From Polyangia bacterium (GTDB taxonomy: Bacteria > Myxococcota_A > Polyangia > Fen-1088), in NCBI GenBank assembly GCA_035578045.1, contig DATJWP010000096.1, forward strand, positions 18,623-82,622: DNA of 64,000 nucleotides. Direction: 5' to 3'. The translations under genes and the position numbers were made by a program. The notes under the pieces are model-generated. The model was given only the letters and a program-made list of their open reading frames with translations. It did not search any database and had not been told where the DNA came from. Of this stretch, positions 5,197 through 62,019 are shown piece after piece. How positions within the stretch are numbered: position 1 is the stretch's first letter; each line of letters begins with the position of its first letter.

Positions 5197-5209
5197 TTAG
5201 GTTGGTTCC

Positions 5210-5419: not shown

Positions 5420-5498
5420 TCGCGCCCGCAACCCGTGACCCGGTCCGTCCGATGAGCTTTCGTGACGGTCGGGCCAATCACTGCGATGCTGGCGCTGC

Positions 5499-6604: not shown

Positions 6605-6660
6605 CGGATTCCCCCGGACGCTTTACCTTCAACCTCGATGGGTTCTGAGCGAGGTGAACC

Positions 6661-7113
6661 ATGCAGCGACGAGGTTTGTTTTTTGTGGCAGCGCTGGTCT
6701 GGGGTCTGGGCGCGGCGGGATGCACGGCCTCCAGCGAGGTGATTCACGGGTTCGGAACGACGCAGACCTGGACCCTGAGCATCAGCCCGCGGGTGCCCGC
6801 GGCCAGAGGCAAGATCAGCGTGCTCGCCGGCAAGGACGGCAATCAGACGGTCGACCTGGAGGTTCAGCGGCTGGCGGAGCCGGCGCAGGTGTTCGAGGGA
6901 ACCAGCACGTACGTGGTGTGGTTGCTGCCGCCCGACGGCCCGCCCACGAACATCGGCGTGCTGCCCCTCGACATGCACCTCCGGGCCCGGCTTCAGACCA
7001 AGACCCCCTACCGGGAGTTCGACGTGGAGGTGACCGCCGAGCCCACGCCCACCGCGACCCAGCCCAGCGGCGACACCAAGGTGATGGGCGCCTCCGTGCG
7101 CCTGCCGACCTGA
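6661..7113 (+). CDS. Hypothetical lipoprotein
   Basis: 150-aa ORF with lipobox LGAAGC. No recognised domain. Confidence 0.6.
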   Translation: MQRRGLFFVAALVWGLGAAGCTASSEVIHGFGTTQTWTLSISPRVPAARGKISVLAGKDGNQTVDLEVQRLAEPAQVFEGTSTYVVWLLPPDGPPTNIGVLPLDMHLRARLQTKTPYREFDVEVTAEPTPTATQPSGDTKVMGASVRLPT

Positions 7114-7173
7114 CCGGCGCTCTGGTTTCCGCCAGTCAACGCTCAATCAAACGGCGTAACTTGGTGGACACGT

Positions 7174-7452
7174 GTGTCAAACGTCGTTGACGTCATGTCG
7201 CATCAAAGCGACGAGAGGGGCATGGAGAGGTTCGAGAACTGCGTTGGACGGAGGCGGGGAGCGGCGGGCCTGCGCACGGACGGGACGCTCGATCGCGCCG
7301 CCGAGGAGACGGCGGATCCGGCCGTTTCGTCCGCCATCGCGACCTGGATCGCTCCCCGGACGGCGGGCACCGTTTCGCTCGCGGTCGCCCTGCGCGACAG
7401 CCGCGGTGGCCTGGACGCGGTCGTGATCTCGCTGGCCGTCATCGGACCCTGA
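7174..7452 (+). CDS. Hypothetical protein (weak call)
   Basis: 92-aa ORF with a GTG start and moderate GC3. It fills the gap between convergent genes. No motif found. Confidence 0.3.
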   Translation: MSNVVDVMSHQSDERGMERFENCVGRRRGAAGLRTDGTLDRAAEETADPAVSSAIATWIAPRTAGTVSLAVALRDSRGGLDAVVISLAVIGP

Positions 7453-19051: not shown

Positions 19052-20356
19052 CTAGCGGCGGCGGCGGCGGGCGAAGGTCAGGGTCAGGCCGAGGAGCAGC
19101 AGGACTGCGCCGGTGCTGGTGGTCTCGCCGCGCACGGCGCAGGAGCAACCGTTCGAGCCAGAGTCGTTGCCGGCGCCGCTGTCGCCGCCGGTGGCCACCG
19201 TGCCGCCGCTGCCGGTGGTGATCGTGCCGCCGGTGCCGAGGATGCCACCGGTGCCGGTGCCGCCGGTGCCGGTGCCGCCGGTGCCGAGGATGCCGCCGGT
19301 GCCGAGGATGCCGCCGGTGCCGGTGCCACCGGTGCCGGTGCCGCCGGTCCCGTGGCCGCCGCCGCCGGCCATGCCGGCGCCCGCGTGGCCGCCGGCGCCG
19401 CCGGCCGCGGCGCCGCCCGAGCCGCCGGTCGCCCCGCCGCTCATGCCGCCGCCGCCGGTGGTGGAGGTGGTCGACAGGCCGCAGGCGCCCGTGGGCTTGT
19501 CGAGGCCCAGGAAGCTGATGACCTGGCCGTTGAGGTTGGCGCCGGTCAGGTCGTGCATCTGGCTGCTGGGGCCCAGGTTCGTCTGCAATCTCACGTTGCC
19601 GTTGCTGTCCTTGTACTCGGTTCGCGTCCACCCGCTGGGGGCGCCGCTGCCCGACATCCCGGACCCGAGGCCCGCCAGGTTCTGGATCTCACTCACCACG
19701 ACCGGGAGCCAGTAGTTGAAGTCGTACTGGTCGCCGCCGCCCACCCACTGCTGAGAGCAGGGGTACTGGCCGCTCCACTGGAACACGCCTTTCACCGTGT
19801 TCGCGTAGGAGGTGCCGTCGTTGCTGGACGGCTTCTGGCCGCACAGCTGGCACTGGGTGTCGTTCTTCGGCCAGGCGCCGGCCGGGAAGCCGGGCAACGC
19901 AGAGCCGCCCGCGAAGACGTCCGGGTAGACGGCGAGCAGCGTGTTGGTCATGCACCCGCCCGAGGAATACCCGGCTGCGAACACGCGCGTGGCATCGGCG
20001 TGCTTGTTCGTGATCAGGTACTTGACCATGGTCACGATGGCCAGCTTGTCACCGTCGCGGCTGGCGCTCGAGTCGAAGCAGTTCTTTCCCGCGTTCGGAG
20101 CGATGATGTAAAAGCCGTTGGTGTCAGCGGCCGACTGGAACCAGCTGTGGGCGTTCCCGGAGTTTCCGCTGCAGTAGTGAATCGCGACCAGGATCGCCGG
20201 CGGGTTGGCCAGCGTGGTCGGGGTGTAAAGGTCGCCCTGCAGGGTGGCCCCGAAGGCGTAGTTGGTCTGCCAGGCACCCGCTCGCGCCTCCGACGCCGTC
20301 AGGAGTCCGACGGCAGCCGCGACGAGAGCAACCGCATAGCTTCGGGATCGAGTCAT
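19052..20356 (-). CDS. PHB-depolymerase-family (CE1-like) esterase with a Gly-rich linker and a MYXO-CTERM sorting tag
   Basis: Signal peptide. Esterase motifs LVAIHYCSGNSGNAHSWF and the nucleophile elbow GYSSGG. The C-terminus is GCSCAV..GAVLLLLGLTLTFARRRRR. Confidence 0.8.
   Translation of the reverse strand: MTRSRSYAVALVAAAVGLLTASEARAGAWQTNYAFGATLQGDLYTPTTLANPPAILVAIHYCSGNSGNAHSWFQSAADTNGFYIIAPNAGKNCFDSSASRDGDKLAIVTMVKYLITNKHADATRVFAAGYSSGGCMTNTLLAVYPDVFAGGSALPGFPAGAWPKNDTQCQLCGQKPSSNDGTSYANTVKGVFQWSGQYPCSQQWVGGGDQYDFNYWLPVVVSEIQNLAGLGSGMSGSGAPSGWTRTEYKDSNGNVRLQTNLGPSSQMHDLTGANLNGQVISFLGLDKPTGACGLSTTSTTGGGGMSGGATGGSGGAAAGGAGGHAGAGMAGGGGHGTGGTGTGGTGTGGILGTGGILGTGGTGTGGTGTGGILGTGGTITTGSGGTVATGGDSGAGNDSGSNGCSCAVRGETTSTGAVLLLLGLTLTFARRRRR
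19225..19348 (-). repeat. Tandem coding repeats (GTGGT / GTGGIL units)
   Basis: The plus strand reads repeated gccgccggtgccgaggat and gccRccggtgccggt units. The minus-strand translation is GTGGTGTGGTGTGGILGTGGILGTGGTGTGGTGTGGILGTGG. Confidence 0.55.
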
Positions 20357-31773: not shown

Positions 31774-32097
31774 CTCGGTACAACGGGGGGGAACTATTTC
31801 ATACTTCCAATCTCTCACTGGAACGCGAACCAGCCGCGCAGCGTGCCGGCATGGGGCTGGTCGCAATTCGGTCCCCCGAGGCCGGCCCGGGCTGGCGGTG
31901 AGAAAACTGTCAGTGGGCTGGTCGCCGCAGGCCGCGAGCCCGACGACCGAAAATGCGAAAACCGGCGCCCGCACCAAAGATCGAAGATTCATGAAGGTCT
32001 TCGGTGAGCTGCCCCTGTGCAAGTGGCGCACGGCCAGGGGCGTTCCCGTCACGTCGCGGCTTGAATCGGGAACGCCGAGATCCTAGGCTCCCGCCTG

Positions 32098-49213: not shown

Positions 49214-50161
49214 TCACTGCCCGACCGCGGCGCGCGCGCCGCCCGCGAACCGCCCCTCGGGGAACAGGGCCAGGTACTCCCGCAGATCGCTTCGCGCGCC
49301 CGCGGCGTCGCTGGAGGCCGCCCGGCAAGCGGCGCGGCCCCAGAACGCGCGCTCCGTGATCGAGTCGAGCGGTCGATCGGCCGCCAGCAGCCGATCCAGG
49401 TCGGCGACGGCCGCCGCACACCTGCCGGCCGCCGACCGCAGCTCGGCCCGGGCGATCAGCAGATCGCGCCCGCCGCCGCTCGGCGCGAGAGCCGCGCCAT
49501 CCAGCAGCGCCAGCGCCTCGACGTTGCGGTGCAACTTGAGCAGCGCTTCGATGCGCGCGCGCGTCGCCTCGGGCGCCAGCGGCCCGGTCGCGAAGCGCGC
49601 GTCGTGCGCGTCCAGCAGCGCCAGCGCGCCGGGCGCGTCGGCGTCACGCCGGAGCTTCTGTAACGCTCTCGCCAGCAGCTCGGACTCCTGCGCCAGCGGC
49701 GACGCCACCGGCCTGGGCGGTGCCGCCACCCGCTCCGGTCGCGGGGCGATCGGTGGGGGCGGCCGCGGGGTCGTCTCGGGCTCCGGCGGCCGCGGCTCGA
49801 GCTCTGGCGGCGGCGTGAGGCGGGGACCGCGCGCCGCCACCCGCGCATGCGGAGCAGGCGACGGAGCGGGCGCACGAACCTCCGGCGCAGGCTTTCGCGG
49901 CCTGAACAGATGGAAGTAACGCTGCCCGGCGGCGGTCAGCGCCCCGCCCGACAGGAGCAGCACGGCCGCGATCGCCACCCGCACCGCCCAGTGACGCTGG
50001 GGCGCGCGCCGCGCCCGGCGCAACCGCCGCCGGATCGCCGCGAGCCGGTCGGCGCTGGGGGCGTCGGTGGCCGCCGCCTGGCGCAGCAACGCCCCGGCGC
50101 GCGACTCCGGGCTGCCGTCGTCGGTGCGTCGTACCCAGCGGTCCGCGCTTCCGCGTTTCAT
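49214..50161 (-). CDS. Putative anti-sigma factor (single TM, Pro-rich spacer, TPR-like C-terminus)
   Basis: The ATG overlaps the sigma-factor stop (ATGA). There is one TM helix (VRVAIAAVLLLSGGALTAAG). The position immediately downstream of the ECF sigma gene supports the call. Confidence 0.55.
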   Translation of the reverse strand: MKRGSADRWVRRTDDGSPESRAGALLRQAAATDAPSADRLAAIRRRLRRARRAPQRHWAVRVAIAAVLLLSGGALTAAGQRYFHLFRPRKPAPEVRAPAPSPAPHARVAARGPRLTPPPELEPRPPEPETTPRPPPPIAPRPERVAAPPRPVASPLAQESELLARALQKLRRDADAPGALALLDAHDARFATGPLAPEATRARIEALLKLHRNVEALALLDGAALAPSGGGRDLLIARAELRSAAGRCAAAVADLDRLLAADRPLDSITERAFWGRAACRAASSDAAGARSDLREYLALFPEGRFAGGARAAVGQ

Positions 50162-50769
50162 CGATGCTCTCCGGTTTCGCGGTCCATCTCTTCCAGGAAG
50201 CGCCGGCGCGCCCGGTGCAGGTGGACCCAGACGGTCGCCAGCTTGCGTCCGGTCATCGCCGCGATCTCCTCGCCCGAGGTCCCCTCGAGCTCGAACAGGA
50301 TCAGCACTTCGCGATATCTGTCGGGCATGCGATCGAGGATCCGGTAGACGGTCTGGGAGGCGCGCCGCCGCTCCAGCTCCTCGATGGGCGTCAGCGGCGC
50401 CGGCGAGACCGATCGTTCGACGTCGGCCCGGCGGGTACGCGTCAGCCAGCCGCGGATCCGATCCTTTCGCCGCCGCCCCCGGACCACGCGCTCGGCGATT
50501 CGATACAACCACGTCGTCAGCTTGGCGTCGCCCCGGAACTCGGGCAGCTGCCGATCGACGACCAGGAAGACCTCGTGGACCAGGTCGTCGACGTCGGCGC
50601 GCGGGCCGCCCAGGCGGCCGACCCAGCGAGCCACGGTCGGGGCGTGAACCCGATAGATCTCGTCCAGATCGAGGGGCACGGGTGGTTGGCCCGGGCCGAC
50701 CACGTTCCTGTTGGCGAGCACTTGCATCGAACGGCCCGTCAGTGTCGTGAGCCCCACGGAACCTTTCAC
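50158..50769 (-). CDS. ECF-type RNA polymerase sigma-70 family factor
   Basis: Region 2 is DDLVHEVFLVV..F.G.AKLTTWLYRIA. Region 4 is YREVLILFELEG.SGEEIA..TG....TV...LHRAR. Confidence 0.85.
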   Translation of the reverse strand: MKGSVGLTTLTGRSMQVLANRNVVGPGQPPVPLDLDEIYRVHAPTVARWVGRLGGPRADVDDLVHEVFLVVDRQLPEFRGDAKLTTWLYRIAERVVRGRRRKDRIRGWLTRTRRADVERSVSPAPLTPIEELERRRASQTVYRILDRMPDRYREVLILFELEGTSGEEIAAMTGRKLATVWVHLHRARRRFLEEMDRETGEHR

Positions 50770-51683
50770 GGCATTCGACCCAGGCTCAACCCGAGGGCCA
50801 GCTGGAGCTCGAAGCGGGGGATCTGCCCCTGATCGGCCAGACCGGTGATCTCCAGGCGATCGCGGCCCGGCCAGACCAGCACGTCCAGGCCGACCCAGGG
50901 GGTGGCGTTACCCCACGGCCTTCCTGCCTGGACGCCCAGGCTGGCCCCGAGCTGCGAGCTGGAGCTGGCCGCGGTGGTCGACAAGCCGACCCCTTCGACG
51001 CTCAGCAGCGCAGCCACGCCCTGGGCGCGCGCCGCCAGGATGGTGCGCCCGACGTCGAATCGCGCCTCGGGCCCGGCGCCGAAGGCGACGCGGCTCCAGC
51101 GCGCGGCGTCGGCGTAGGCGCCCACCGGCGCAGAGCGGGCTGTCACGCCCGAAACGGTGAGGCCGAGACCCATGTGCCAGCCGCCGGGCGCGATCCATCC
51201 CCCGATGCGGGCGCCGGGCGCCGCCTGTCCGCCGGTCACGGACCCGATCAGCGCCAGCCCCAGGTCCCAGCTGAGGGGCGGCGCCGGCGGTGCGGCCGCC
51301 TGCGTCACCTGGACCACGGCTGTCGGTTGTTCGCTGCGGCTCGCAGGAGGGGGCAGGGTGACCTGGGCGGTGATGCGGGGATCCAGGTCCGCCTCCCAGG
51401 CGGCGATGACGATGGCCACGGCGTGAGCCAGATCGGCGCAGCTCTCGGCGGCGGGGAGATCGCGCTCGGCGAGCTGCTGGTCACGCGGATCCAGCAGCCG
51501 GACGTGCAGGCCCCCGCCGTCACGGGACAGGCGGACGTGGTGCTGGTCCGCGGTCCGGTCGCCCGCCGCGGCCGGCGCCATCTCGACCAGAAGGCGGCTG
51601 ACGTCGGGCGGGGCAGGGCAGGTGACGTCGCCGGCGACGTCGACCGCGACCAACGCGAGCCCCAGCGCCAGCCCGAGGGACAT
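50766..51683 (-). CDS. Hypothetical envelope protein (beta-rich C-terminal half), first gene of the ECF operon
   Basis: 305 aa. Its stop overlaps the sigma GTG start (GTGA). The C-terminal half has alternating Gly/hydrophobic strands. Confidence 0.5.
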   Translation of the reverse strand: MSLGLALGLALVAVDVAGDVTCPAPPDVSRLLVEMAPAAAGDRTADQHHVRLSRDGGGLHVRLLDPRDQQLAERDLPAAESCADLAHAVAIVIAAWEADLDPRITAQVTLPPPASRSEQPTAVVQVTQAAAPPAPPLSWDLGLALIGSVTGGQAAPGARIGGWIAPGGWHMGLGLTVSGVTARSAPVGAYADAARWSRVAFGAGPEARFDVGRTILAARAQGVAALLSVEGVGLSTTAASSSSQLGASLGVQAGRPWGNATPWVGLDVLVWPGRDRLEITGLADQGQIPRFELQLALGLSLGRMP

Positions 51684-51791: not shown

Positions 51792-51884
51792 TTGACAGGA
51801 GCGCCATCGCTGACGTAAATGAATATGAATTTCAGTTTCAATTAAGTCAGGAGCGGCCAGCGGCCACGCGCCCCGAGCCCGGCC
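51792..51884 (+). promoter_or_regulatory. Promoter-operator-leader module, copy 1
   Basis: TTGACA at 51792 with a 17-18-nt spacer to gTAAAT. An AT-rich island at 51816..51846 carries TGAA/TTCA inverted repeats. Conserved blocks CGGCCAGCGGCC (51854..51865) and GCGCCCCGAGCCCGG (51868..51882) follow. Confidence 0.45.
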
Positions 51885-51912
51885 AGCAGCAGGCGAGACG
51901 CCGGAGGCTCGG

Positions 51913-52119
51913 TTGGACACGAACGACGAACATCATCGACTGCACGATCTGCGGTGCCGTTGCGGCAGCCTGGTGGCGCGGCTGCTGGACGGCAAGCTGG
52001 AGTTGAAGTGCCGCCGCTGCCAGCGGATCGGCGTCATCGATCTCGCTGCTGCTCGCGCCGCCGGCGGGCCGATCGAGATCGCCTGGCAAGCCGAGTCGCC
52101 CCGAGCGACACGGCGGTGA
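51913..52119 (+). CDS. Com-like zinc-ribbon small protein
   Basis: TTG start with GGAGG 5 nt upstream. 68 aa with LRCRCGSLVARLLDGKLELKCRRCQRIGVI, the C-x-C...C-x-x-C spacing of the Mu Com family as I recall it. Its stop overlaps the receptor GTG (GTGA). Confidence 0.55.
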   Translation: MDTNDEHHRLHDLRCRCGSLVARLLDGKLELKCRRCQRIGVIDLAAARAAGGPIEIAWQAESPRATRR

Positions 52120-54623
52120 CCGCGCTGCTGCTCCGGTCCTGCGGGCTTGGCCTGGCCCTCTGGCTCCTTTCGACCCCTCGCGCCTGGGGCGCCTCGTCCG
52201 CCGACGGCGGTGAGAGCGATGGTTCGCCGTCGGACGCCGGCGCGCTGGAGCCCGACGCGGTCACGCCGCCCCGCCTGGTCGAAGAGGCCCAGCCGGTCTA
52301 TCCCGAGGATGCCGGCGCCGCCGGCATCGAGGGGACCGTGGTCTTGGCGATCACGATCGACGACGCCGGCGTGGTGACCGACGCCGCGGTCGAGCAAGCG
52401 CTGGGGCACGGGCTCGACGAGGCGGCGCTGGATGCAGCACGGCGCTCGCGGTTCACGCCGGCGTTGCGGGGCGGACGCCCGATCGCTGCGCGGATCCGCT
52501 TCGCCTGCCACTTCGCGGCGCCGCGCCCGCCCCGGCCCGCACCGGCACTGCCGGCGCCGATCGCCGCGCCGCCGCCGGCGCCGCCCGAGGCGATCAGCGA
52601 CGTGACCATCCGGGGCGCCTCGGCCGCGCGGCGGTTGCGCGAGTCAGCGGAAGCGGTGACCGTGGTGGAGACCAAGCAGGCGCAAAGCGAGAGCGCCGAC
52701 CTCGGCGAGGTGCTGGCCCGCGTTCCGGGGCTGGCCGTGCAGCGCAGCGGCGGCCTCGGCTCGTATGCGCGGATCTCCCTCAACGGTCTGACCGACGACC
52801 AGATCCGGTATTACATGGACGGGATCCCGCTCGACGCAGCCGGGTTCGGGCTGGGGTTGCAGAACACGCCGCTCGCCTTCGTCGATCGCGTCGAGATCTA
52901 CCGCGGGGTGGTGCCGGCGCGCTTCGGCGCCGACGCCCTGGGCGGCGCCATCAACGTCGTCACGCTGGACGATCCCCGCGGCACGCACGGCGGCGGGTCG
53001 CTGCAGCTCGGCTCGTTCGGCACCACCCGGGCCACCCTGGCGGCGCGCAGGGCGCGGCCGGACAGCGGGCTCTACACCGCCCTCAGCCTGTTCGCCGATC
53101 ACGCGGACAACGACTACCCGGTCGACGTTCAGGTGCCCGATGCGCTGGGGCGCCTCACCGTCGAGCGTGTCCACCTGTCCCACGCCGCCTACTCGGGCTA
53201 CGGCGGGATGGCCGACATCGGCCTGGTCAATCGCGCCTGGGCCCGGCGATTGCTCCTGCGACTGTTCGCCAACCGTCAGGACGACGACATTCCGACCAAC
53301 CTGGTCATGACGGTCCCCTATGGCGAGGCGCGGTACGGAGAGGTGGCTCGGGGCGCCAACCTGCGGTACGAGGCGCCGCACCTGGCGGGATCGCCGGTGG
53401 GCGCGACCGCCATCGTCGCCTACAGCCGCAACTCGACCAGCTTTCAGGATCTGTCGCCGTGGGTCTACGACTGGTTTGGGCAGCAGGTTCGCGCGCGTAC
53501 CCGTCCGGGCGAGATCGGTCCGCCGACGGACCAGACGATCTGGGACGACAAGGTGCTGGCCCGCCTGTGGTTCACCTGGGCGCCGCGCCAGGGACAGGAG
53601 GCTCGGCTGGCGCTGGCGCCGACCTTCGACCGCCGGACGGGAGAGAATCGGGAAGCCACCGCCGGTCACGATCCACTGGCGGGCCTGCGCCGCTACCTGA
53701 CCGTCGTCGCGGGCGGCGAGTACGAGGTCGATCCGTTCCAGCGCCGGCTGCAGGCGATCACCTTCGTGAAGGGTTACCTGTACCGAACCTGGGCCGACCA
53801 GCCGCTGGCCGGCGGCGGCACCCAGCGCTTGCAGCAGGACAGTCTGACCGGCGGCGCCGGCGAGGAGGTCCGCTATCGCTTCAGGCCCGCGCTCTGGGCC
53901 AAGGCTTCGTACGAACGAACCACGCGCTTCCCGTCGCCCGACGAGGTGTTCGGAGACGGCGTCTGGACGATCGCCAACCTCGAGCTGCGGCCGGAGCGAA
54001 GCCACAACGCCAACCTGAGCCTGACCGTCGACGACTGGCCGACCCATGCCGGCGCCGTGCGTGGGGAGCTGAACGTCTTCTTCCGGCAGGCGTCGGACCT
54101 GATCGTGCCGGTCCCCAGCACCGAGACGACGGTCTACGACAACGTCAACACCGCCCTCAGCCAGGGGCTGGAGGCCAGCGCGGGATGGACGGCGCCGCGC
54201 GGGTGGCTGGCGATCGACGGCAACGCGACCTGGCAGAGCCTGCGCAACCGATCGTCGACCGGCCAGTTCGGGGCGTTCGACGGGGACCGGATCCCGAACC
54301 GGCCCTGGCTGTTCGCGAACGCGTCCCTGCGCGCGCGGCGGACGGCGTTGTCGGCGCCAGGCGACGAGCTGTCGCTCGGCTGCTACCTGCGCTACGTGCA
54401 CGCGTACTACCGCGGCTGGGAGAGCCTGGGCCTGCCGCAATACAAGCAGGTCATCCCCTCGCAAACCACGCTCGACGTCGTCCTGACCTACGCCACGGGC
54501 GGCAAGCTGCGACAGATCTGGACGCTGGAGGCCGACAACCTGGCGGACGCCAAGGTCTACGACTTCTATGGCGTGCAGCGCCCCGGGCGCGCGTTCTACG
54601 CCAAGGTCGTGGTGGAGTACTAG
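52116..54623 (+). CDS. TonB-dependent receptor with an N-terminal TonB C-terminal-like domain
   Basis: Signal peptide. TonB_C-like region PPRLVEEAQPVYPEDAGAAGIEGTVVLAITIDDAGVV..LDEAALDAARRSRFTPA..G.P. Plug region VTVVE..DLGEVLARVPGLAVQRSGG and IEIYRG. The barrel ends in an aromatic residue (VVVEY). Confidence 0.85.
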   Translation: MTALLLRSCGLGLALWLLSTPRAWGASSADGGESDGSPSDAGALEPDAVTPPRLVEEAQPVYPEDAGAAGIEGTVVLAITIDDAGVVTDAAVEQALGHGLDEAALDAARRSRFTPALRGGRPIAARIRFACHFAAPRPPRPAPALPAPIAAPPPAPPEAISDVTIRGASAARRLRESAEAVTVVETKQAQSESADLGEVLARVPGLAVQRSGGLGSYARISLNGLTDDQIRYYMDGIPLDAAGFGLGLQNTPLAFVDRVEIYRGVVPARFGADALGGAINVVTLDDPRGTHGGGSLQLGSFGTTRATLAARRARPDSGLYTALSLFADHADNDYPVDVQVPDALGRLTVERVHLSHAAYSGYGGMADIGLVNRAWARRLLLRLFANRQDDDIPTNLVMTVPYGEARYGEVARGANLRYEAPHLAGSPVGATAIVAYSRNSTSFQDLSPWVYDWFGQQVRARTRPGEIGPPTDQTIWDDKVLARLWFTWAPRQGQEARLALAPTFDRRTGENREATAGHDPLAGLRRYLTVVAGGEYEVDPFQRRLQAITFVKGYLYRTWADQPLAGGGTQRLQQDSLTGGAGEEVRYRFRPALWAKASYERTTRFPSPDEVFGDGVWTIANLELRPERSHNANLSLTVDDWPTHAGAVRGELNVFFRQASDLIVPVPSTETTVYDNVNTALSQGLEASAGWTAPRGWLAIDGNATWQSLRNRSSTGQFGAFDGDRIPNRPWLFANASLRARRTALSAPGDELSLGCYLRYVHAYYRGWESLGLPQYKQVIPSQTTLDVVLTYATGGKLRQIWTLEADNLADAKVYDFYGVQRPGRAFYAKVVVEY

Positions 54624-54628: not shown

Positions 54629-56404
54629 GTGAAGCTGTCACGCCTGTCCTTCACCCGCCTCTGGGCGGCCCACGCCTGGCTCGGCGTGACGTGCGGCCTG
54701 GTGCTGCACGTGATGTTCTTCGCGGGCGGGTTCGCCCTGTTCCACGACGAGCTCAGCGCCTGGCAGGAACCCGAGCTGTCGCGGGCCCCCCCCGAGCAGT
54801 CGGTCGGGCGGCTGGTGGCGCGGGCGCTCGAGGCGAGCGCGGCCCCGCCGGTCGCGCTGGAGGTGACGATGCCGGGTCCGAACCGGCCCTTCGTGGAGCT
54901 GGCCTGGACCGAGACGTCGGGCGCGCGTGGTGAAGCCCGCCTCGAGGCCGCCTCTGGGCGTGCCGCGCCCGAGACCTCGCACCTGGCGCGCGTGCTCTTC
55001 TGGCTGCACTTCCTCTACCACCCGCGCGTTCCGTGGGGGATGAACGTGGCCGGGTTGTTCGGCGCCGCCCTGCTGCTGGCGCTGGTCACCGGGCTGCTGA
55101 TTCATCTCAAGGATCTCGTGCGCCAGCTCTATCAGCTGCGGGCTGATCGTTCGCCGCGCGTCCTCTGGTCGGATCTGCACAAGGTCCTGGGCGTGATGGG
55201 GCTGCCGTTTCAGATCGCCTACGCGCTGACGGGAGCGGTCATCGGCCTGGCGCCGGTGATGCTCTCGCTGGCGACCGGTCCGATCTTCCATGGCGACCGC
55301 GCGGCGGCTGCCCGGGCGCTGTGGGGCGAGAGCGCGGCGCCGGTCCCGGCGGGGCGCCGCGCGCCGGCGCTGCCGCTCGACGACCTGCTGTCACGCGCGC
55401 GCGCCGTCGTGCCGGGCTTCGAACCCGACTTCGCGCGGCTGGACAACCTCGGCGATGCGGCGGCTCGGGCCGCGTTCTGGGGGCGGCGGCCGGGCCGGCT
55501 GTTCGCCCGGGGGGACGTCGTGCTGCGCGCCACCGACGGCGCCCTGATCGCCGACGGCGCCAGCACGCCGCCCACGCCGGGTGCGGCGGTGACCCGCTGG
55601 GCGACAGGGCTTCACTACGTCTGGTTCGGCGGCGTGGCGGCGCGGATCCTGTGCGCGCTGCTGGCTGCGGCGGCTTGCCTGACCATCCTGAGCGGCAACT
55701 GGATCTGGCTGGCGCGCCGCGAGTCGACCGCGGCACGCGCTGGAAACCGGCTGTTGCTCCGCCTGACGATCGGGATCGGCGGCGGGCTGTTGCTGGGAAC
55801 CGCCGGGCTATTCTGGGCCAACCGACTGGCTCCGCCGGCGGCGCGCCTGGACGCCGAGACCTGGGCCTTCTTCGGAACCTGGGCGGCGACGGCCACGCTG
55901 TTCGCCGCCCGAGCAGAGTCGCGGGGCGGCTGGGTCGGGCTTCTGCGGCTGGCGGGAGCCGCCTTCACCGCCGTGCCGCTGCTGACGGCCGCCCGGTTCG
56001 CCGCGACCGCGTCGTGGGCCGGTGTCGCAGCTGCTCTGGGCGGCGTCGACACCGCCCTGGCGGGGCTGGGCCTGCTGCTGCTGCTGGCTTCGGAGATGGT
56101 CCAGCGCGCGGCGGCCCGTGCGACGGCGCGCGGCTCTGGTCCCCTGGATCGACCGGCGAGGCGGCCGGTGGCGGCCCGCGTGCTTCCGGCGCTGCTTCTG
56201 GCGGCCGTGCTCGCGGCCGTTCGCGTGGGGCAGTTCCCGACGGAGGTCGGCGAAGCGGTCCTGTTCGCGCTCGCCGCTTTCACGACCGCCGTCTCGATCT
56301 TCGTCCCGCTGGCCGCGCTACGCCCGCGCTGGGCCTGGCACGCCGCCCTGGCGGCGCCGGTGGTCGCGCTGGCGCTGCTGGCGGTCGAGGCGCGCGCGCG
56401 ATGA
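54629..56404 (+). CDS. PepSY-associated TM helix protein (PiuB-like iron-regulated membrane protein)
   Basis: GTG at 54629. The N-terminus LWAAHAWLGVTCGLVLHVMFFAGGFALFHDEL is followed by multiple TM helices. Confidence 0.8.
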   Translation: MKLSRLSFTRLWAAHAWLGVTCGLVLHVMFFAGGFALFHDELSAWQEPELSRAPPEQSVGRLVARALEASAAPPVALEVTMPGPNRPFVELAWTETSGARGEARLEAASGRAAPETSHLARVLFWLHFLYHPRVPWGMNVAGLFGAALLLALVTGLLIHLKDLVRQLYQLRADRSPRVLWSDLHKVLGVMGLPFQIAYALTGAVIGLAPVMLSLATGPIFHGDRAAAARALWGESAAPVPAGRRAPALPLDDLLSRARAVVPGFEPDFARLDNLGDAAARAAFWGRRPGRLFARGDVVLRATDGALIADGASTPPTPGAAVTRWATGLHYVWFGGVAARILCALLAAAACLTILSGNWIWLARRESTAARAGNRLLLRLTIGIGGGLLLGTAGLFWANRLAPPAARLDAETWAFFGTWAATATLFAARAESRGGWVGLLRLAGAAFTAVPLLTAARFAATASWAGVAAALGGVDTALAGLGLLLLLASEMVQRAAARATARGSGPLDRPARRPVAARVLPALLLAAVLAAVRVGQFPTEVGEAVLFALAAFTTAVSIFVPLAALRPRWAWHAALAAPVVALALLAVEARAR

Positions 56405-56676
56405 CGACCGCGGGGCCGACCCGCGCGGTGGCGGCGGTGCGGGTCCTCGGCGCCGCGCTGGGCGGGCTCGCGGTGGCCGGTGCGGCTTCGCTCTGCCTGG
56501 CGCGGCTGCCGTTGCCGGCGCCGGGGCTCGGCTTCGCGCTGGGCGTGGCGCTGTTCGTTCCCCTCTGGGTGGCGCTGGCCTGCCTGGGCCTTGTCGCCCG
56601 TCGCGCCCGCCATGTGTGGCTCGCCTGCGCTGGAGCCGCCACGATCTTCGCCTGGCTCGCCTGGCTGTTCGGCTGA
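56401..56676 (+). CDS. Small membrane protein (DUF3325-like)
   Basis: The ATG overlaps the PepSY stop (ATGA). 91 aa with three hydrophobic helices. This is the usual partner position. Confidence 0.55.
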   Translation: MTTAGPTRAVAAVRVLGAALGGLAVAGAASLCLARLPLPAPGLGFALGVALFVPLWVALACLGLVARRARHVWLACAGAATIFAWLAWLFG

Positions 56677-56688: not shown

Positions 56689-56785
56689 TTGACAGCCGGG
56701 CCGGCGGTCGTTACAAATGATTTTGAAAGTCGTTTTCATTTAGAGATTTCAGCGGCCAGCGGCCCCCAGCGCCCCGAGCCCGGTC
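56689..56785 (+). promoter_or_regulatory. Promoter-operator-leader module, copy 2
   Basis: TTGACA at 56689 with a 17-nt spacer to TACAAA. The AT-rich palindrome AAATGA(56715)-N15-TCATTT(56741) follows. The same conserved blocks CGGCCAGCGGCC (56753..56764) and GCGCCCCGAGCCCGG (56769..56783) are present. Confidence 0.5.
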
Positions 56786-56831
56786 GGTTCGACAGGACCG
56801 ATCAGCTCGTCACGCATGGGAGCGGCCGCGC

Positions 56832-57548
56832 ATGAACCTGATCACCGCGCTGAAGTCACTGTTCGTCGGATCCGGCGCCACCTGGATCCTGTGGTTGCTG
56901 CTGGGGCTGGCGGGCGTGGCGCTGGCGATCGCCGTCGAGCGCGCGCTCTACCTGCGCGGCCGGGACGCCGACCTGGGCGGCCTGGCGCGCGCCCTCGAGG
57001 CGCGCCTGGAGGCGCGCGACGTCGCGGGGGCTCGCAGGGTGCTGGCCGGATCGCGTTCCTTGGCGGCCTCGGTCGCCGCCGCCGGCCTGCGGGTCGCGCA
57101 CCTTGGTCCGGCCGCCGCCGAGAGAGCGATGCAGGGAGCGTCGGCCGTCGAGCGCGCGCGGCTGGAAGCTCGCCTGGCCTTTCTCGGCACGCTGGGCAAC
57201 AACGCCCCGTTCGTCGGTCTGTTCGGCACCGTCGTGGGGGTCGTTCAGGCCTTCGACCGGCTGGGCGTGACCGGCGCCGGCGGCGCCGCCGGCCAGGCCG
57301 CGTCGCAGGCGGTCATGGCGGGCATCTCGGAGGCCCTGATCGCGACGGCCGTCGGGATCGGCGTCGCGCTGCCGGCGGTCGCCGCTCACAACTACTTCCA
57401 GCGTCGGATCAGCCGGCTGCTGGACGGGACGGAAGCGGTCAACAGCGTCGTCCTGGCTTACCTGCTGGCCGAGGAGCCGCCGCCGGACGGGTTGGTGGTG
57501 GCGGACGTCGCGTCGGAACCGGCCGCCGCGCGGCTGCGGGGGGCCTGA
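56832..57548 (+). CDS. exbB: MotA/TolQ/ExbB proton-channel protein
   Basis: 238 aa with three TM helices. Conserved LGTLGNNAPFVGLFGTVVGV and ALIATAVGI. Confidence 0.85.
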   Translation: MNLITALKSLFVGSGATWILWLLLGLAGVALAIAVERALYLRGRDADLGGLARALEARLEARDVAGARRVLAGSRSLAASVAAAGLRVAHLGPAAAERAMQGASAVERARLEARLAFLGTLGNNAPFVGLFGTVVGVVQAFDRLGVTGAGGAAGQAASQAVMAGISEALIATAVGIGVALPAVAAHNYFQRRISRLLDGTEAVNSVVLAYLLAEEPPPDGLVVADVASEPAAARLRGA

Positions 57549-57549
57549 G

Positions 57550-57984
57550 GTGGCCGGTGCGGCGAGCACCCCGGGGCGCGGGCGCGCGGGGGCGATCATC
57601 GAGGGCATCAACGTCACGCCCCTGGTCGACATCATGCTGGTGCTGCTGGTGATCTTCATCGTGACCGCCAAGGTTCTGGTCACACCGGCCGTGCCGCTGG
57701 ACCTGCCCAAGGTGGCGCGGGCGGACGAGATCCAGGTGGTCTTTGCAGTGACGATCCCGGTCCAGGGGGAGACGCGCGTCGACGGTCAGCCCGTCGCCGA
57801 CGAAGCGGCGCTGGCGGCGCTGGCGGCGGCCGCGGTGGCCCGCGATCGCGATCTGCGCGCGGTCATCCAGGCCGACGGCGCCGTGCCGCACCGGCGGGTG
57901 GTGCGCGCGCTGGATGCGCTCCGGCGGGCCGGCGTCGAGAAGGTGGCGGTCGCCACCCAGCTGGAAGACCAGGGGGCGCGTTGA
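57550..57984 (+). CDS. exbD: ExbD/TolR biopolymer transport protein
   Basis: INVTPLVDIMLVLLVIFIV and a periplasmic domain with a VIQADGAVPHRRVVRALDALRRAG-type segment. Confidence 0.85.
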   Translation: MAGAASTPGRGRAGAIIEGINVTPLVDIMLVLLVIFIVTAKVLVTPAVPLDLPKVARADEIQVVFAVTIPVQGETRVDGQPVADEAALAALAAAAVARDRDLRAVIQADGAVPHRRVVRALDALRRAGVEKVAVATQLEDQGAR

Positions 57985-58775
57985 TGCGACACGCCCGCGC
58001 TCGCTACCTGGCGTTCGCCACCGGCGAGCGGCCGCACCGGCTGGCAGCGAGCCTGTTCGGACCCGCCGGAGGCTCGTCGCGATCGCGTCTGCTGGCTGGT
58101 GCCAGCGTCGCCGCGGCCGCCTACACGGCGCTGGGAGCATGGATTGCCACGCGCCCCGGGCGGCCGGCGCACGCGTCGCCGCACCCGCCCGAGGTCGCCG
58201 TCGAGCTGCTGGTGACGCGGCCGCTTCCCATCCCGCCTCCTTCACCCGCGAGCCCGCGAGCTGTTCGGCGGGTGTCGGTGGCGCACGCGTCGCCACCTCC
58301 GGCGCGGGCGGCCCAGCCAGCGCAGGCGGCGCCCGTCGTGGCGCGAGCGGCCGCGCCCGAGGCGCCCCTGGACCTGACCGACTTCTCGATCGCAACCGGC
58401 GGTGCGACGCGCTCGGCCGGCGGCGCGACGTCCAGCTCTGGCCCGGCGGGGGCCGCCGATTCCGCGCCGGGCGCGGGCGAGCCGATGCCGGACCTTTCGC
58501 GGCCGGTCTCGATTCGCGACACCGAGTGGCGGGACTGCGCCTGGCCCGCTCAGGCCGACGCCCTGGGCGTCGACGAGCAGGTCGTCGCCATGCGCGCGAT
58601 CGCCTCCGCCGAGGGCCAGTTCGAGTCGGGTGAGGTGGTGGGCGACCCGGGTTACGGGTTCGGCGCCGCGTTGCTCTCGTGCGCGCGGCGCCATGGGTTC
58701 GCGCCGGCGCTCGACCGGCAGGGGCGCCCCGTGCGGGCCCGCTCCGGGCTCATTCGCTTCACTTTCACCAGATGA
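57984..58775 (+). CDS. tonB: TonB family energy transducer
   Basis: The ATG overlaps the exbD stop (TGATG). One TM helix, a Pro/Ala-rich spacer, and a divergent TonB_C-like end (..FAPALDRQGRPVRARSGLIRFTF). Confidence 0.7.
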   Translation: MRHARARYLAFATGERPHRLAASLFGPAGGSSRSRLLAGASVAAAAYTALGAWIATRPGRPAHASPHPPEVAVELLVTRPLPIPPPSPASPRAVRRVSVAHASPPPARAAQPAQAAPVVARAAAPEAPLDLTDFSIATGGATRSAGGATSSSGPAGAADSAPGAGEPMPDLSRPVSIRDTEWRDCAWPAQADALGVDEQVVAMRAIASAEGQFESGEVVGDPGYGFGAALLSCARRHGFAPALDRQGRPVRARSGLIRFTFTR

Positions 58776-58795
58776 GGACGGAAAGGACCGGTTCG

Positions 58796-60028
58796 ATGAA
58801 AGTCAGCAAGCAGGTCGGAATCATGTGGACGCTGCTGGTGGTCGCGCCTTTGGCCGGCTGCGGCGGCGCCGGCGCAGAGCAAAAAGACAGCGCGGCCCAG
58901 GGGCCGGTGTACGTCGTCTCGACCGGGGTCAGCTCGGGCGACGATTTCTTCGGCTACCTGACCACCGTGGGGTCGCTCGATCCCGGGACCACCTTCTCCC
59001 TGGACGGCGCGATCGAGGTCGACCCTTCGTGGATCTTCTCGTCGCCGGGCAAGCCGTACGTCTATGCGGCGTCGCTGCTCCAGCCGACGATCGATCGCTA
59101 CCTGATCACGGACTCCGGCGCGCTGGCCAGGGACGCGACCGTCAGCTTCGCGAACCTGGGCGTGCAGAGCGCCTACCTGGCGGCGTCCGCCCCGATCTAC
59201 TCGGATGACAAGTCCTACTTCGTCGACGACGCCCAGGACCAGATGGTGATCTGGAATCCGGCGGCGATGACGATCATCGGCACGATCCCCTTCGGCGACC
59301 AGCCCGAGGGGGCGCTGCCGCCCCAGCCCGAGGGCACCGTCGTGGTGCACGACGGACTGATCATGACCGCTATCGATTGGTCGGATTCGTCCAGCGATCC
59401 GAGCCTGTACGGATCGAAGGTACGACTTCTGGGGATCGATCCCGCGACTGACACCATCGTGCAGTCGACCACCGACGCGCGCATCACGTATGCGTCTCCG
59501 CTGGCGCAGGCTTCGGACGGAACGGTGTACTACAGCCCGCCGTCGTTCGTGGCCGCCGAGATCCAGGTCGCTCCTGGACACGGCAGCCCCTCGCAGGCGC
59601 TCTCGGTCGGGCCCACCAGCGCGGCGTTCGATCCGACGTTCGACCTGGATCTCTCCGCGCTGGTGGGTGGACGCCCGGCGGGCGACTTCATCCTGCTCGA
59701 CGATCAGACGGCCATCGTCCGGGCGTGGCACGCCGACCTGGCCGATCCGGTGACCGAGGCCAACTGGAAAGACGTGCTCTGGACGGAGGCCGGGTTCTTG
59801 TGGTGGCGCTGGCACGTCGGCGATGCCCAGGCCATCCAGATCCCCAACCAGAGCCCGGGCGCCCTGGGCGCCAGCGTCACGCGCATCGACGGGAAGCTCT
59901 ACGTCGTCCGCACCAGCGCCGACTCGACCACCAGCACGCTGGACGAGATCGACGCGCAAGGCGAGTTCACCGCCACGCTGTCGGGTCCAGGGCAGCTCAT
60001 CGGCGCCGGCGCCGTGCGGGTTCGGTGA
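58796..60028 (+). CDS. Lipoprotein, paralog A (beta-propeller-like, unknown family)
   Basis: ATG at 58796 and lipobox LAGCGG. It shares VIWNPAAMTIIGTI, LLGIDPATDTIV and FDPTFD segments with 60805..62019. Confidence 0.6.
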   Translation: MKVSKQVGIMWTLLVVAPLAGCGGAGAEQKDSAAQGPVYVVSTGVSSGDDFFGYLTTVGSLDPGTTFSLDGAIEVDPSWIFSSPGKPYVYAASLLQPTIDRYLITDSGALARDATVSFANLGVQSAYLAASAPIYSDDKSYFVDDAQDQMVIWNPAAMTIIGTIPFGDQPEGALPPQPEGTVVVHDGLIMTAIDWSDSSSDPSLYGSKVRLLGIDPATDTIVQSTTDARITYASPLAQASDGTVYYSPPSFVAAEIQVAPGHGSPSQALSVGPTSAAFDPTFDLDLSALVGGRPAGDFILLDDQTAIVRAWHADLADPVTEANWKDVLWTEAGFLWWRWHVGDAQAIQIPNQSPGALGASVTRIDGKLYVVRTSADSTTSTLDEIDAQGEFTATLSGPGQLIGAGAVRVR

Positions 60029-60032
60029 CGAC

Positions 60033-60818
60033 GTGCTGCAAGCCGCGCTGGTCACCTTCCGCGAAGGGATCGAGTCCTTTCTCATCGTCGCTGTGGTCAC
60101 CGCATACCTGAGGAAAACGGGGCGCGCCGCCCTGATCCAGGGGGTGCGCGTCGGGGTCGCGCTCTCCGCCGTCACCTGCGTGGTGGGGGCGTGGCTCTGG
60201 TTGCAGGTGCCGAACCAGCCGTTCTATGAGGGGTTGGGCGCGCTGGTCGCCGCGCTCCTGGTCGGAGGCCTGCTCTGGCAGACGATGCGGGCCGGGCGGC
60301 GCCTGGCGGGAGAGATCGAGCGGCGCATCGAGGCGGCCGCGGGTCGGGCGGGGTCATCGGCGCGGGCCGCAGCCGGCGTGGCGGCGGTCACCGCGCTGCT
60401 GGTGACCCGCGAGGGGTTGGAGGCGGTCTTCTACCTGGGCGTGCAGGCGCTGGCGGCGCGGAGCTCGGCCGGCGGCTGGCGCGCGCACGCGGTCGTGGCG
60501 GGCGCCGCCGCCGGGCTCGCGGCGGCGGCGGCGGTCGCGCTCGGCTGGGTCCGGATCGCCCGCCGGCTGAACCTGGCCGTGGTCCTGCGCGTGACGGCGC
60601 TGTTTCTGGCGCTCTTCCTGGTCCAGCTGGTCGTCTACGGCGTCCATGAGCTGGCGGAGAGCGGTGTCATCAGCGGCAGCCAGGCCTTTCACGACGCCAC
60701 CGAGGTCTTTGGCCCGGACGGTCGAATTGGCCACCTCATCTCGTACTCGCTGCTGGGGGCGCCGCTCGTCTACCTGGTCTTGGCAATCAAACAGAGGAGA
60801 ATCCATGCTTCGTCGTGA
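60033..60818 (+). CDS. FTR1/EfeU-family high-affinity iron permease
   Basis: GTG at 60033. Two RExxE motifs (REGIES, REGLEA) sit in TM helices. About 7 TM segments. Confidence 0.8.
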   Translation: MLQAALVTFREGIESFLIVAVVTAYLRKTGRAALIQGVRVGVALSAVTCVVGAWLWLQVPNQPFYEGLGALVAALLVGGLLWQTMRAGRRLAGEIERRIEAAAGRAGSSARAAAGVAAVTALLVTREGLEAVFYLGVQALAARSSAGGWRAHAVVAGAAAGLAAAAAVALGWVRIARRLNLAVVLRVTALFLALFLVQLVVYGVHELAESGVISGSQAFHDATEVFGPDGRIGHLISYSLLGAPLVYLVLAIKQRRIHASS

Positions 60819-62019
60819 GTTGTTGGGTGTGGCGCTGGCCGGCGTCTGTTCGTTCGGCTGCGGCGGTGGCACGTCCGGCGGGCCCGGACCCGCGGCCGAC
60901 AAGTACGTGCTGGGGTCGGTCGTCATCGACGCCGACGGAAACCGGACCACCTACGTTCAGACGATCGCGTCGCTGGACGACGGTCCTTTCGACAACACCA
61001 GGGCGATCGAGCTGCCGGGCAACGGCGTGGTCATGGCGGGGAAGAGCGCGTTCTACGTCGGCCTCACCGAGGAGCCGACCTGGGTCCGCTACGCGCCCGA
61101 CGCCGGCGGCGCCATCGTCGAGGCCGGGCGCATGAGCCTGCTTTCGACCGGGGCCGGCGCCATCGACTACGGAAACGCCATCGTCGACGAGGAGACGGCC
61201 GTGTCCGTCTTCAGCAACCCGCCGCTGGCCGTGGTCTGGAACCCGACCACCATGACGATCACCGGCGAGATCGATCTGGCAAGCCTCGCCCGGGACGGCT
61301 ACGACCTCGAGGTCTGGACCACCGTCGCGCACAACGGGCTGGTCTACGTGCCGGGGCGCTGGTCCGACTGGACCGGCGACCGCATCTACCCGGCGGTGTC
61401 GCTGACGATCCTCGATCCCAAGGCCATGACCGTCCTGGGCACCGCGCTCGACGACCGGTGCGCCAGCGGCGGCCGGCCGGTCTTCGACGCCGCCGGCTAC
61501 GCCTATGTCCTGGGCGACGGCCGCACGTATTCGATCCAGATGTTCGCGAACGCCGCCGGGACGACGGCGCCCCAGAACTGCCTGCTCCGCATCGCGCCCG
61601 GCCAGACCACCTTCGACCCCGGGTACGACTACCCGATTCCGTCTTTGACCGGCGGTCTCGAGACGGTCGGCGAGCTCGACACGGCCGACGCGGACAGCGG
61701 GCTCGGGTACTCGCCCATGTTCTACCCGGAGCAGCTTCCGGCCGGCGTCGAGCCCATCGACTTCGGCTTCTGGAACTATCCGGCGTTCAAGATGTGGCGC
61801 CTCCACCTGACCGATCCCCCCACCGCCGAGGTGGTCGACGGCGCCCCGTTCTCGACGATCGGCTTCACCGGCAGCGCGCTGGGCGGGTATCTTTACGAGG
61901 GCGAGAGCGCCGACGGCGCGACGACCGACGTCTACCAGTATGATCCGACCTCCAATACGGCCCGGAAGCGGTTCACGATGGACGGCTACTTCTACGGGCT
62001 CTTCCCGCTGGAGCCGTAG
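60805..62019 (+). CDS. Lipoprotein, paralog B
   Basis: ATG at 60805 preceded by GAGGAGA. Lipobox SFGCGG. Segments VVWNPTTMTITGEI, LTILDPKAMTVL and FDPGYD are colinear with paralog A. Confidence 0.6.
   Translation: MLRRELLGVALAGVCSFGCGGGTSGGPGPAADKYVLGSVVIDADGNRTTYVQTIASLDDGPFDNTRAIELPGNGVVMAGKSAFYVGLTEEPTWVRYAPDAGGAIVEAGRMSLLSTGAGAIDYGNAIVDEETAVSVFSNPPLAVVWNPTTMTITGEIDLASLARDGYDLEVWTTVAHNGLVYVPGRWSDWTGDRIYPAVSLTILDPKAMTVLGTALDDRCASGGRPVFDAAGYAYVLGDGRTYSIQMFANAAGTTAPQNCLLRIAPGQTTFDPGYDYPIPSLTGGLETVGELDTADADSGLGYSPMFYPEQLPAGVEPIDFGFWNYPAFKMWRLHLTDPPTAEVVDGAPFSTIGFTGSALGGYLYEGESADGATTDVYQYDPTSNTARKRFTMDGYFYGLFPLEP

Follow-up and report, generated by a model that had tools for sequence, protein, structure and literature searches.

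Bacterial iron uptake is usually described as a matter of Fur plus, in some species, small RNAs or extracytoplasmic function (ECF) sigma factors. Here, we describe two copies of a ~95-nt promoter-operator-leader module that precede two iron-uptake operons in a 64-kb stretch of DNA from a Polyangia bacterium (contig DATJWP010000096.1, positions 18,623 to 82,622; 'the window' hereafter). Behind a predicted Fur-type operator, each copy carries a GC-rich element composed of two blocks with four short tandem units, and the first operon opens with a gene for a small, Com-like zinc-ribbon protein. On balance, we favour a reading that we hold to be probable, if well short of certain, in which the GC blocks serve as an mRNA-leader binding platform for the Com-like protein behind a Fur-controlled promoter.

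What is known about comparable systems? TRAP and HutP, two oligomeric RNA-binding attenuation proteins, read (G/U)AG repeats and UAG-N4 repeats, respectively, and we know of no homologue of either at the present system. Homologous promoter segments that lie before unrelated genes of one genome were reportedly put forward as putative mobile promoters by Matus-Garcia et al., writing in Nucleic Acids Res in 2012. The nearest counterpart to our system is the Com protein of phage Mu, which acts on mom mRNA. Systematic evolution of ligands by exponential enrichment (SELEX) yielded the core GAG(N)2CC for Com, and, as its bipartite version, NGAGNNCC(N)2-3GAGNNCCNN; CC(N)2-3GAG is given as the functional core, and the native Mu site reads GAAUGCCUGCGAGCAUCCCACGGAG (PMC6483171). 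We confirmed this native site in the Mu sequence. Both window copies contain CC-CC-GAG in addition to four G-M-G-N-C-C units (M, A or C), and the functional core CC(N)2-3GAG occurs in 7/10 of the blocks collected below, compared with 6.5% of random 31-nt windows.

A duplicated module with uneven conservation

The layout that the initial annotation had read from the sequence, TTGACA followed by an AT-rich palindrome and GC blocks, is present in both copies (Table 1). Conservation between the two is strongly uneven along the module: the -35 region (8/8) and the GC blocks (29/29) are identical, as compared to 15/21 positions in the Fur core, 7/21 in the spacer and 9/30 in the 30 nt downstream of the blocks. 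The blocks had been described as perfectly conserved, with gaps of 2 and 4 nt, which holds true, but block 1 had been drawn too short, since an AG precedes the 12-mer given then in both copies and extends it to a 14-nt tandem, AGCGGCC-AGCGGCC. The TCAG between island and blocks, likewise listed for both copies, is not kept in relatives and is not part of the conserved element. Across the window, whose G+C content is 71%, exact block 2 occurs at these two places only, and the combination of block 1, gap and block 2 also has two occurrences only. AT islands of this type were found at both module sites and at one unrelated position, 31792, where the AT-rich sequence AACTATTTCATACTTCCAATCTCT (31792-31815) is unlike the Fur-type boxes.

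The GC-block motif in related genomes

Is the element private to this genome? A relaxed search of loci fetched via protein homologues, of which ~195 kb were scanned with a position weight matrix (PWM), brought the number of distinct motif instances to ten: the two window copies and eight more from five related genomes (L008, L010, L012 and L015 with one each, L011 with four, termed L011a to L011d). The GC blocks are hence a conserved element found in at least five further genomes, which bears out the earlier proposal of a shared RNA element or second regulator site. All instances conform to [N-G-M-G-N-C-C] x2, N2-4, [G-M-G-N-C-C-N] x2, that is, four tandem units. Among the resulting 40 units, position 1 is G in 38/40, position 2 A or C in 40/40, position 3 G in 40/40, and positions 5 and 6 are C in 40/40. 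Because position 2 may be A or C, no single complementary RNA can read the units, which argues against a small RNA target or a stem and for a protein; the degeneracy thus fits protein recognition rather than base pairing.

Nor are the blocks scattered at random regardless of gene context. The PWM returned nine strong instances at 34-40 bits, the only strong matches in the ~195 kb and all of them intergenic, and nothing else between 18 and 34 bits; the L015 variant, which is degenerate, scores 20.7 bits. Including the latter, 10/10 instances are intergenic, 8/10 point to a gene 27-160 nt downstream, and 7/10 start 9-12 nt behind a Fur-type box. Where the downstream gene is clear, it encodes a TonB-dependent receptor, ExbB, a TonB-like or a Com-like protein, in the same orientation and just behind the Fur-type box. 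The G+C content of L011 is only 60%, yet four motif copies are kept there.

The motif was not found in the related clusters L004, L005 and L014. The exact block pattern gave 0 matches in the genome collection and two in metagenomes, both within coding sequence and without an AT island, which we judged to be chance. A literature search for the block sequence returned vector or primer matches only, and no description of the leader element was found. We also considered the blocks as a G-quadruplex or i-motif, which leaves the invariant G1 and G3 unexplained, and as a leader peptide, which we rejected because the 2-nt difference between the gaps breaks the reading frame.

Two of the relatives deserve separate mention. 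In L010 (19390-19995), the block is opposite in orientation to the receptor gene, lies ~70 nt behind a second Fur box and points into an ECF sigma gene without its region-2 N-terminus; a rearrangement seems to have taken place at the block or close to it. The L008 block sits in a lower-GC intergenic stretch (2930-3002) after exbB-exbD-tonB, with a tRNA gene nearby on the opposite strand. An extra half element, GAGTCCAGCGCCGA, stands in front of this block, which has no clear Fur box or downstream gene and may be a decayed module or belong to a separate small transcript.

A Com-like zinc ribbon and its phage counterparts

The com-like open reading frame (ORF) at the head of operon 1 is conserved, with the signature RCxCGSLxAR...ELKCRRCxR and four invariant cysteines. 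The gene is kept in L003, L006, L011 and L015 as well as in L016-L023 and contig P0003, where it again sits in an iron cluster of this type. In window copy 1 and in L011a, the distance from the end of the block to the com-like start is 30-31 nt. Of 1,923 relatives returned by a profile search, most either have no annotation or carry a name derived from FluMu Com, in many cases 'phage FluMu protein Com' as assigned by the Joint Genome Institute. When a 60-member family profile was aligned with Mu Com (sequence read from AF083977), the match extended across the whole zinc finger (hhalign 84%, E 7.7e-6). PHROG 6417, a 'translational regulator', was weakly matched by 5/5 close members (E 0.003-0.02), and a viral relative, L029, which precedes a DNA methylase gene, reaches the Pfam family Zn_ribbon_Com just below the cut-off (E 2.9e-4). 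The Com-like proteins found nothing meaningful when their sequences were searched against Pfam, NCBIfam and PDB, and tblastn of the protein against GenBank phages gave one insignificant match. From the profile comparisons, we assign the predicted protein, by remote homology, to the Com family of Cys4 zinc ribbons. No paper linking Com-like proteins to iron uptake was found. The com-like gene of the L015 and L006 lineage (10209-10424 and 572-784, respectively) has a separate promoter, which includes the AT box GAAAGTGCAAATGC; next to it comes a conserved gene of 70-71 aa that is absent from the window and L011.

Do phage relatives of the protein come with similar RNA elements? Viral contigs searched with the family profile provided 14 loci encoding relatives. 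Tandem units, in a looser form, begin ~0-100 nt from the end of the zinc-finger match in 13/14 of these loci, and 10/14 have the strict pattern G[AC]GGCC-N1-5-G[AC]G[CGT]CC at -9..+105 nt relative to the com match, against a background of 28 matches in 305 kb. Typically, the phage element reads GAGGCC-N3-4-GAGCCC-N6-GA(G/A)CGCC-N2-GAGCGTCC, followed by a Shine-Dalgarno (SD) sequence and a start codon. It is located in the com 3′ coding region or in non-coding DNA past the stop codon (L030, L033, L037/L039). The downstream genes that were checked encode N6/N4 DNA methylases, and together with the Zn_ribbon_Com match of L029 this identifies the phage loci as classical com-methyltransferase modules. 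Phage units and window blocks share the order of their hexamers, a GGCC-type first and a CCC-type second, and AGCGCCCCGAGC of copy 2 recurs letter for letter within the L029 element.

The C-terminal tails of the phage Com relatives (L028-L041) encode (L/M)RPxEPxPERxER by means of the rare codons AGG and CGT. As these rare codons create the GAGGCC and GAGCGTCC units, the phage com 3′ ends look like a case of dual coding with selection at the RNA level. A scan of viral contigs with the heptad pattern further uncovered a version with 3+3 units, AGCGGCC x3 - TT - GAGCCCN x3, in three near-identical contigs (Table 1). A TACAAT precedes it, and a phage head-protein gene (phrog_240) follows 31 nt further on; a com-like gene was not found in the fetched parts of L025, L026 and L027.

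Promoters and predicted Fur-type operators

The AT islands had been taken for Fur-family operators, and this view gains support from several sides. Both copies show the Fur-box phasing TGA-N3-TGA-N3-TCA-N3-TCA, and the Fur pattern TGAnnnTGAnnnTCAnnnTCA matches copy 1 with 0 mismatches and copy 2 with 1 mismatch, these being the sole 2 matches in the window, where 0.05 are expected. The pattern also occurs at 8 more promoter regions of TonB-system genes, in L010, L011, L012, L013 and L014, in which orthologous receptor, exbB and tonB-like genes are preceded by the same pattern or a near-identical box; the box of the L010 receptor gene (GATTTTGAGAGTCATTTTCAT), for example, is nearly identical to that of copy 2 (GATTTTGAAAGTCGTTTTCAT). 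More distant receptor orthologues have textbook Fur boxes at their promoters (L005, GAGAGTCACTATCATTATC; L004, ACTAATTATCAATATCTAT), and fur genes sit within several related clusters. The islands are therefore probable Fur-type operators, as predicted from phasing and orthologous promoters, with Fur binding as what we infer. In L011, a cobW (COG0523-type) gene adjoins the cluster (4922-6157), and L014 has two fur-family genes side by side (6159-7247); in view of these, the boxes of some lineages might answer to a Fur paralogue such as Zur. Within each window box lies an 8-codon ORF in the same register (ATG...TAA, MNMNFSFN, 51819-51845; ATG...TAG, MILKVVFI, 56717-56743). We rejected these as real genes: they have no SD and were judged coincidental, probably a by-product of the AAATGA...TCATTTA palindrome.

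As to the promoters, the perfect TTGACA and the general layout of the initial annotation stand, but its A/T-rich -10 is weak. The order TTGACA, GC-rich spacer, TAAA(A/T)G and AT box recurs in L006, L010 and L015, which supports the assignment. A strict sigma-70 scanner calls neither window promoter because neither -10 has both A2 and T6, leaving the -10 assignment weak. In both copies, the predicted Fur box begins directly behind the candidate -10, at 17-18 nt from the perfect TTGACA, and the GC block would start at ~+25 of the transcript. In L011, the box fills the spacer between -35 and -10 (TTGACA-17-TAATCA or TATTCA) and the block starts 9-10 nt after the -10, at ~+3 of the transcript.

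A proposed two-layer control and its alternatives

How would a leader platform for the Com-like protein operate? In a first layer, a sigma-70-type promoter with a perfect -35 and a weak -10 would be overlapped from about -7 to +20 by the Fur-family operator, and given this overlap both operons would be off when iron is plentiful, silenced by Fur occupying the box over -10/+1. When iron is scarce, transcription would begin in or just past the box, and each leader would start with the four units. These units, placed within the first 25-60 nt of each transcript, would make up the second layer. The Com-like protein, translated first from operon 1, would bind them and, by analogy with Mu Com on mom mRNA, change the fold of the leader so that the ribosome-binding site is exposed; activation is the presumed sign of the effect. 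The protein would thus boost its own synthesis and that of the coupled receptor, ExbB/ExbD/TonB and the downstream uptake genes, and the receptor operon would thereby be coupled to the energiser operon. Judged by its parts, the system seems to be a phage-type translational switch recruited into iron uptake.

Several observations speak against a Com-binding leader. The -10 hexamers of both copies are weak, and the transcription starts are predicted ones. On the RNA side, there is no conserved hairpin presenting the motif, and the translation-inhibition stem is without statistical support: duplex energies between block and initiation region are no better than those of random windows in 7/7 testable copies, and the copy 1 leader folds no better than its shuffles (z = 0.15). 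The unit spacing is GMG-N1-CC with a 7-nt period, whereas SELEX gave GAG-N2-CC and phage units are 9-10 nt apart; moreover, many units are GCG rather than GAG, and L012 and L011d are without any GAG. As for the protein, that of the window has no Pfam or PDB match of its own, and its AlphaFold2 model is poor (predicted local distance difference test score 64), with an uninformative Foldseek comparison against PDB. The com-like genes of L006 and L015 are without a block in front, though the L015 receptor operon has one, while L008, L010 and L012 carry blocks with no com-like gene in 10-20 kb of contig each; overall, blocks were present in 3/3 loci with a com-like gene versus 3/6 without, too few for significance. 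Finally, a partner of Fur at the DNA level would explain just as well why Fur box and block are a near-constant 9-12 bp apart.

This last point leads to a reading of the blocks as a DNA operator downstream of the promoter for a second transcription factor beside Fur, be it a co-repressor, an anti-repressor or a roadblock, which we regard as unlikely. It would account for a distance between box and block that is kept in 7/10 copies though the position of the -35 differs between the window and L011, for the failure to find conserved RNA secondary structure and for the A/C degeneracy at unit position 2, which suits protein reading of either nucleic acid. However, units with a 7-bp period do not all face the same side of B-DNA, the internal gap is not constant (2 to 4 bp), the distance to the box rises to 29 bp in L012 and ~70 bp in L010, and the block starts at ~+3 in L011 but elsewhere at ~+25 to +45. 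Nor is any candidate DNA-binding regulator consistently present alongside the blocks, and the very similar phage units sit in com/mom-type mRNA leaders, where RNA is the known target. Blocks that act as RNA without the Com-like protein, that is, as an anti-SD or structural element, as the target of an iron-responsive small RNA or as a determinant of mRNA stability, likewise appear improbable to us. The 5′ leader position and fixed orientation are in keeping with such a role, and the copy 2 leader folds better than its shuffles (-51.8 kcal/mol, z = -2.69), with the block 1/gap region GCGGCCCCCA predicted to pair with UGGGAGCGGCCGC and thereby to hide the SD. A complement noted earlier, CCGAGCC (51873-51879) facing a GGCTCGG (51906-51912) that overlaps the ribosome-binding site, does exist in copy 1, but a functional pairing is not borne out, given the random-level duplex energies and the z-score of the copy 1 fold. 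The A/C variation, unreadable by one complementary RNA, is a further argument against a purely RNA-based role. So are the Rfam searches (Rfam 15 covariance models), with no window match at the gathering score, nothing over the modules at E <= 10 and nothing in L011 7400-16750, as well as the search for a complement of the blocks in the window, of which none was found. In copy 1, copy 2 and L010, a complement of GAGCC lies ~25 nt further downstream, but none was found in the L011 and L012 copies, and this candidate was dropped; a GGCC-N3-GGCC mini-hairpin in block 1 is invariant, so without covariation, and is broken in L011a.

Far less credible still is the notion that the similarity is a trace of recent duplication or gene conversion, a 'mobile promoter' whose GC blocks have no function of their own. 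While two copies stand before non-homologous genes in one genome and L011 has four with the same promoter architecture, a recent event is at odds with blocks that are identical at 29/29 positions next to spacers (7/21) and downstream sequences (9/30) at about the random level, and is largely refuted by a motif kept in at least five other genomes with unalignable flanks, one of them at 60% GC. We consider it just as implausible that the blocks are promoter elements, a -35 and a -10, recognised by sigma-54 or by the ECF sigma factor encoded nearby. There is indeed a divergent ECF sigma gene upstream of copy 1, the first unit is separated from the fourth by 16-18 nt, and the L010 block points at an ECF sigma remnant, but reading the aligned copies revealed no match of the GGAAC-N16-17-CGT or GG-N10-GC type. 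In addition, the spacing varies by 2 nt, all four units rather than two are conserved, the ECF operon itself has no block in front, the L011 and L012 loci contain blocks without any ECF gene, and a good sigma-70 -35 is already there. A PvdS-type promoter was rejected as well, there being no consensus match. Returning to the Com-binding leader, one might speculate that the Cys4 protein is in addition a metal-sensing RNA switch, with Zn or Fe at the four-cysteine site deciding whether the G-M-G-N-C-C units are bound. We rate this as quite doubtful; if true, a domesticated phage regulator would be a direct post-transcriptional iron/zinc sensor for TonB-system leaders in Polyangia, a bacterial counterpart in logic to the eukaryotic iron regulatory protein/iron-responsive element (IRP/IRE) system.

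Gene organisation and feature coordinates

The closest public relatives of the window are metagenome-assembled genomes of Polyangia (Myxococcota). Both modules are matched at 100% identity by a metagenome contig from ENA (L007), whose gene calls, moved to window coordinates by +46831, serve as an independent annotation (Table 1). The receptor gene begins at a GTG that shares bases with the com-like stop (GTGA, 52116-52119), an overlap that suggests translational coupling of regulator and receptor. The receptor's TonB_C-Plug architecture, with its unusual N-terminal TonB_C domain, recurs in L010, L012, L014 and L015.

Table 1. Positions of the features of both modules, the adjoining genes and the motif instances elsewhere (window coordinates unless a locus is named)
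Feature	Position	Strand	Remarks
Copy 1, -35 hexamer TTGACA	51792-51797	+	Same TTGACA(GG)/GC-rich spacer/TAAA(A/T)G layout in L006, L010, L015
Copy 1, candidate -10 GTAAAT/TAAATG	51815-51822	+	Weak; 17/18-nt GC-rich spacer
Copy 1, predicted Fur-type operator	51817-51843	+	27-bp imperfect palindrome; core TGAATATGAATTTCAGTTTCA at 51820-51840; pattern match, aligned to relatives' boxes
Copy 1, GC block (proposed Com-response element)	51852-51882	+	AGCGGCC AGCGGCC ac GCGCCCC GAGCCCG G; four G-M-G-N-C-C units
Copy 1, block 1	51852-51865	+	AGCGGCCAGCGGCC; followed by gap AC (2 nt)
Copy 1, block 2	51868-51882	+	GCGCCCCGAGCCCGG
Copy 1, SD and start	51903-51915	+	SD GGAGG 51903-51907; GGCTCGG 51906-51912; TTG start 51913; possible 3′ arm of translation-inhibition stem with block 2, pairing at chance level
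Copy 2, -35 hexamer TTGACA	56689-56694	+	
Copy 2, candidate -10 TACAAA/ACAAAT	56712-56718	+	Weak
Copy 2, predicted Fur-type operator	56715-56741	+	AAATGA-N15-TCATTT; core TGATTTTGAAAGTCGTTTTCA at 56718-56738
Copy 2, GC block (proposed Com-response element)	56751-56783	+	AGCGGCC AGCGGCC ccca GCGCCCC GAGCCCG G
Copy 2, block 1	56751-56764	+	AGCGGCCAGCGGCC; followed by gap CCCA (4 nt)
Copy 2, block 2	56769-56783	+	GCGCCCCGAGCCCGG
Copy 2, remaining leader	56784-56834	+	SD GGGAG 56818-56822; exbB ATG 56832
com-like gene, first of operon 1	51913-52119	+	68-aa Cys4 zinc ribbon; RCxCGSLxAR...KCRRC
TonB-dependent receptor gene	52116-54623	+	N-terminal TonB_C domain and Plug; GTG start; gene call in L007
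PepSY_TM protein gene	54629-56404	+	Gene call in L007
91-aa protein gene, end of operon 1	56401-56676	+	Gene call in L007
Operon 2	56832-62019	+	
exbB	56832-57548	+	
exbD	57550-57984	+	
tonB-like gene	57984-58775	+	
XusB-like gene	58796-60028	+	
FTR1 permease gene	60033-60818	+	
XusB gene	60805-62019	+	
Divergent genes	50158-51683	-	No GC block in front
305-aa protein gene	50766-51683	-	
ECF sigma factor gene	50158-50727	-	
L008 motif	2971-3001	+	Intergenic, after exbBD-tonB
L010 motif	19554-19583	+	Rearranged region beside truncated ECF sigma gene
L011a motif	7484	+	Before com-like gene and PepSY_TM
L011b motif	16517	-	Before TonB_C gene
L011c motif	13804	-	Before 439-aa gene
L011d motif	16622	+	Before 253-aa gene; one unit UAG
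L012 motif	4625	+	Before TonB_C-Plug receptor
L015 motif	670	+	Before receptor operon; degenerate copy
Six-unit version, L025	2459-2486		One of three near-identical viral contigs
Six-unit version, L026	2021-2048		One of three near-identical viral contigs
Six-unit version, L027	2199-2226		One of three near-identical viral contigs

Significance and comparison with known systems

The system points to a third layer of iron-uptake control, in which a zinc finger of the Mu Com type and its response element would act in a chromosomal Fur regulon, before several operons. Its Fur part is ordinary; a Com-type regulator together with a multi-operon element in a chromosomal iron regulon has, as far as we found, not been reported in the literature. 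If confirmed, it would give the widespread Com-like small proteins their first assigned cellular regulon, define G-M-G-N-C-C units as the code that the family recognises and explain the co-ordination of a receptor operon with the ExbB-ExbD-TonB energiser operon. The leader element itself is short and sharply defined.

Set against Fur-repressed TonB promoters, the module has the familiar phased AT-rich inverted repeat, over the candidate -10/+1 region, here before genes for a receptor, ExbBD-TonB, FTR1, PepSY_TM and XusB proteins, and as in such promoters the box is conserved at orthologous positions. It differs in that the window box is degenerate relative to GATAATGATAATCATTATC and that a second conserved element, which classical Fur promoters do not have, follows 9-12 bp after the box. 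Like the targets of TRAP and HutP, the blocks are a tandem array of short units in a 5′ leader, in which an invariant G-x-G triplet returns after a short spacer of fixed length, and one unit of L011d is UAG. In contrast, there are only four units here, CC is invariant too, and no alternative of terminator and antiterminator is seen. The similarity to mobile promoters lies in a ~95-nt promoter-operator-leader cassette that is present in 2-4 copies per genome before non-homologous genes. Unlike in these, it is mainly the functional sub-elements that are conserved, and this across genera, so that the copies are maintained regulatory sites, not recent copies.

The likeness to Mu Com and mom, in turn, comprises a small Cys4 zinc-ribbon protein of the Com type as well as a GC-rich leader element of repeated GAG...CC units, with the SD and start codon a few tens of nt further downstream, and the com-methyltransferase phage loci share GAGGCC-N3-4-GAGCCC... 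in the same order. Yet the window element consists of four units with a 7-nt period and uses GCG as well as GAG, the first zinc knuckle of the Com-like protein is CxC instead of CxxC, and a translation-inhibition hairpin is not demonstrable. No target at the 3′ end of or just after com that would control mom or a methyltransferase was found in the window, where the downstream genes serve iron uptake. Here, the system is chromosomal and non-phage and lies in a Fur-type iron-uptake cluster. Whereas the phage element resides in the 3′ end of com and has a single target, that of the window precedes both the com-like gene and a second operon, from which we propose a small regulon with autoregulation.

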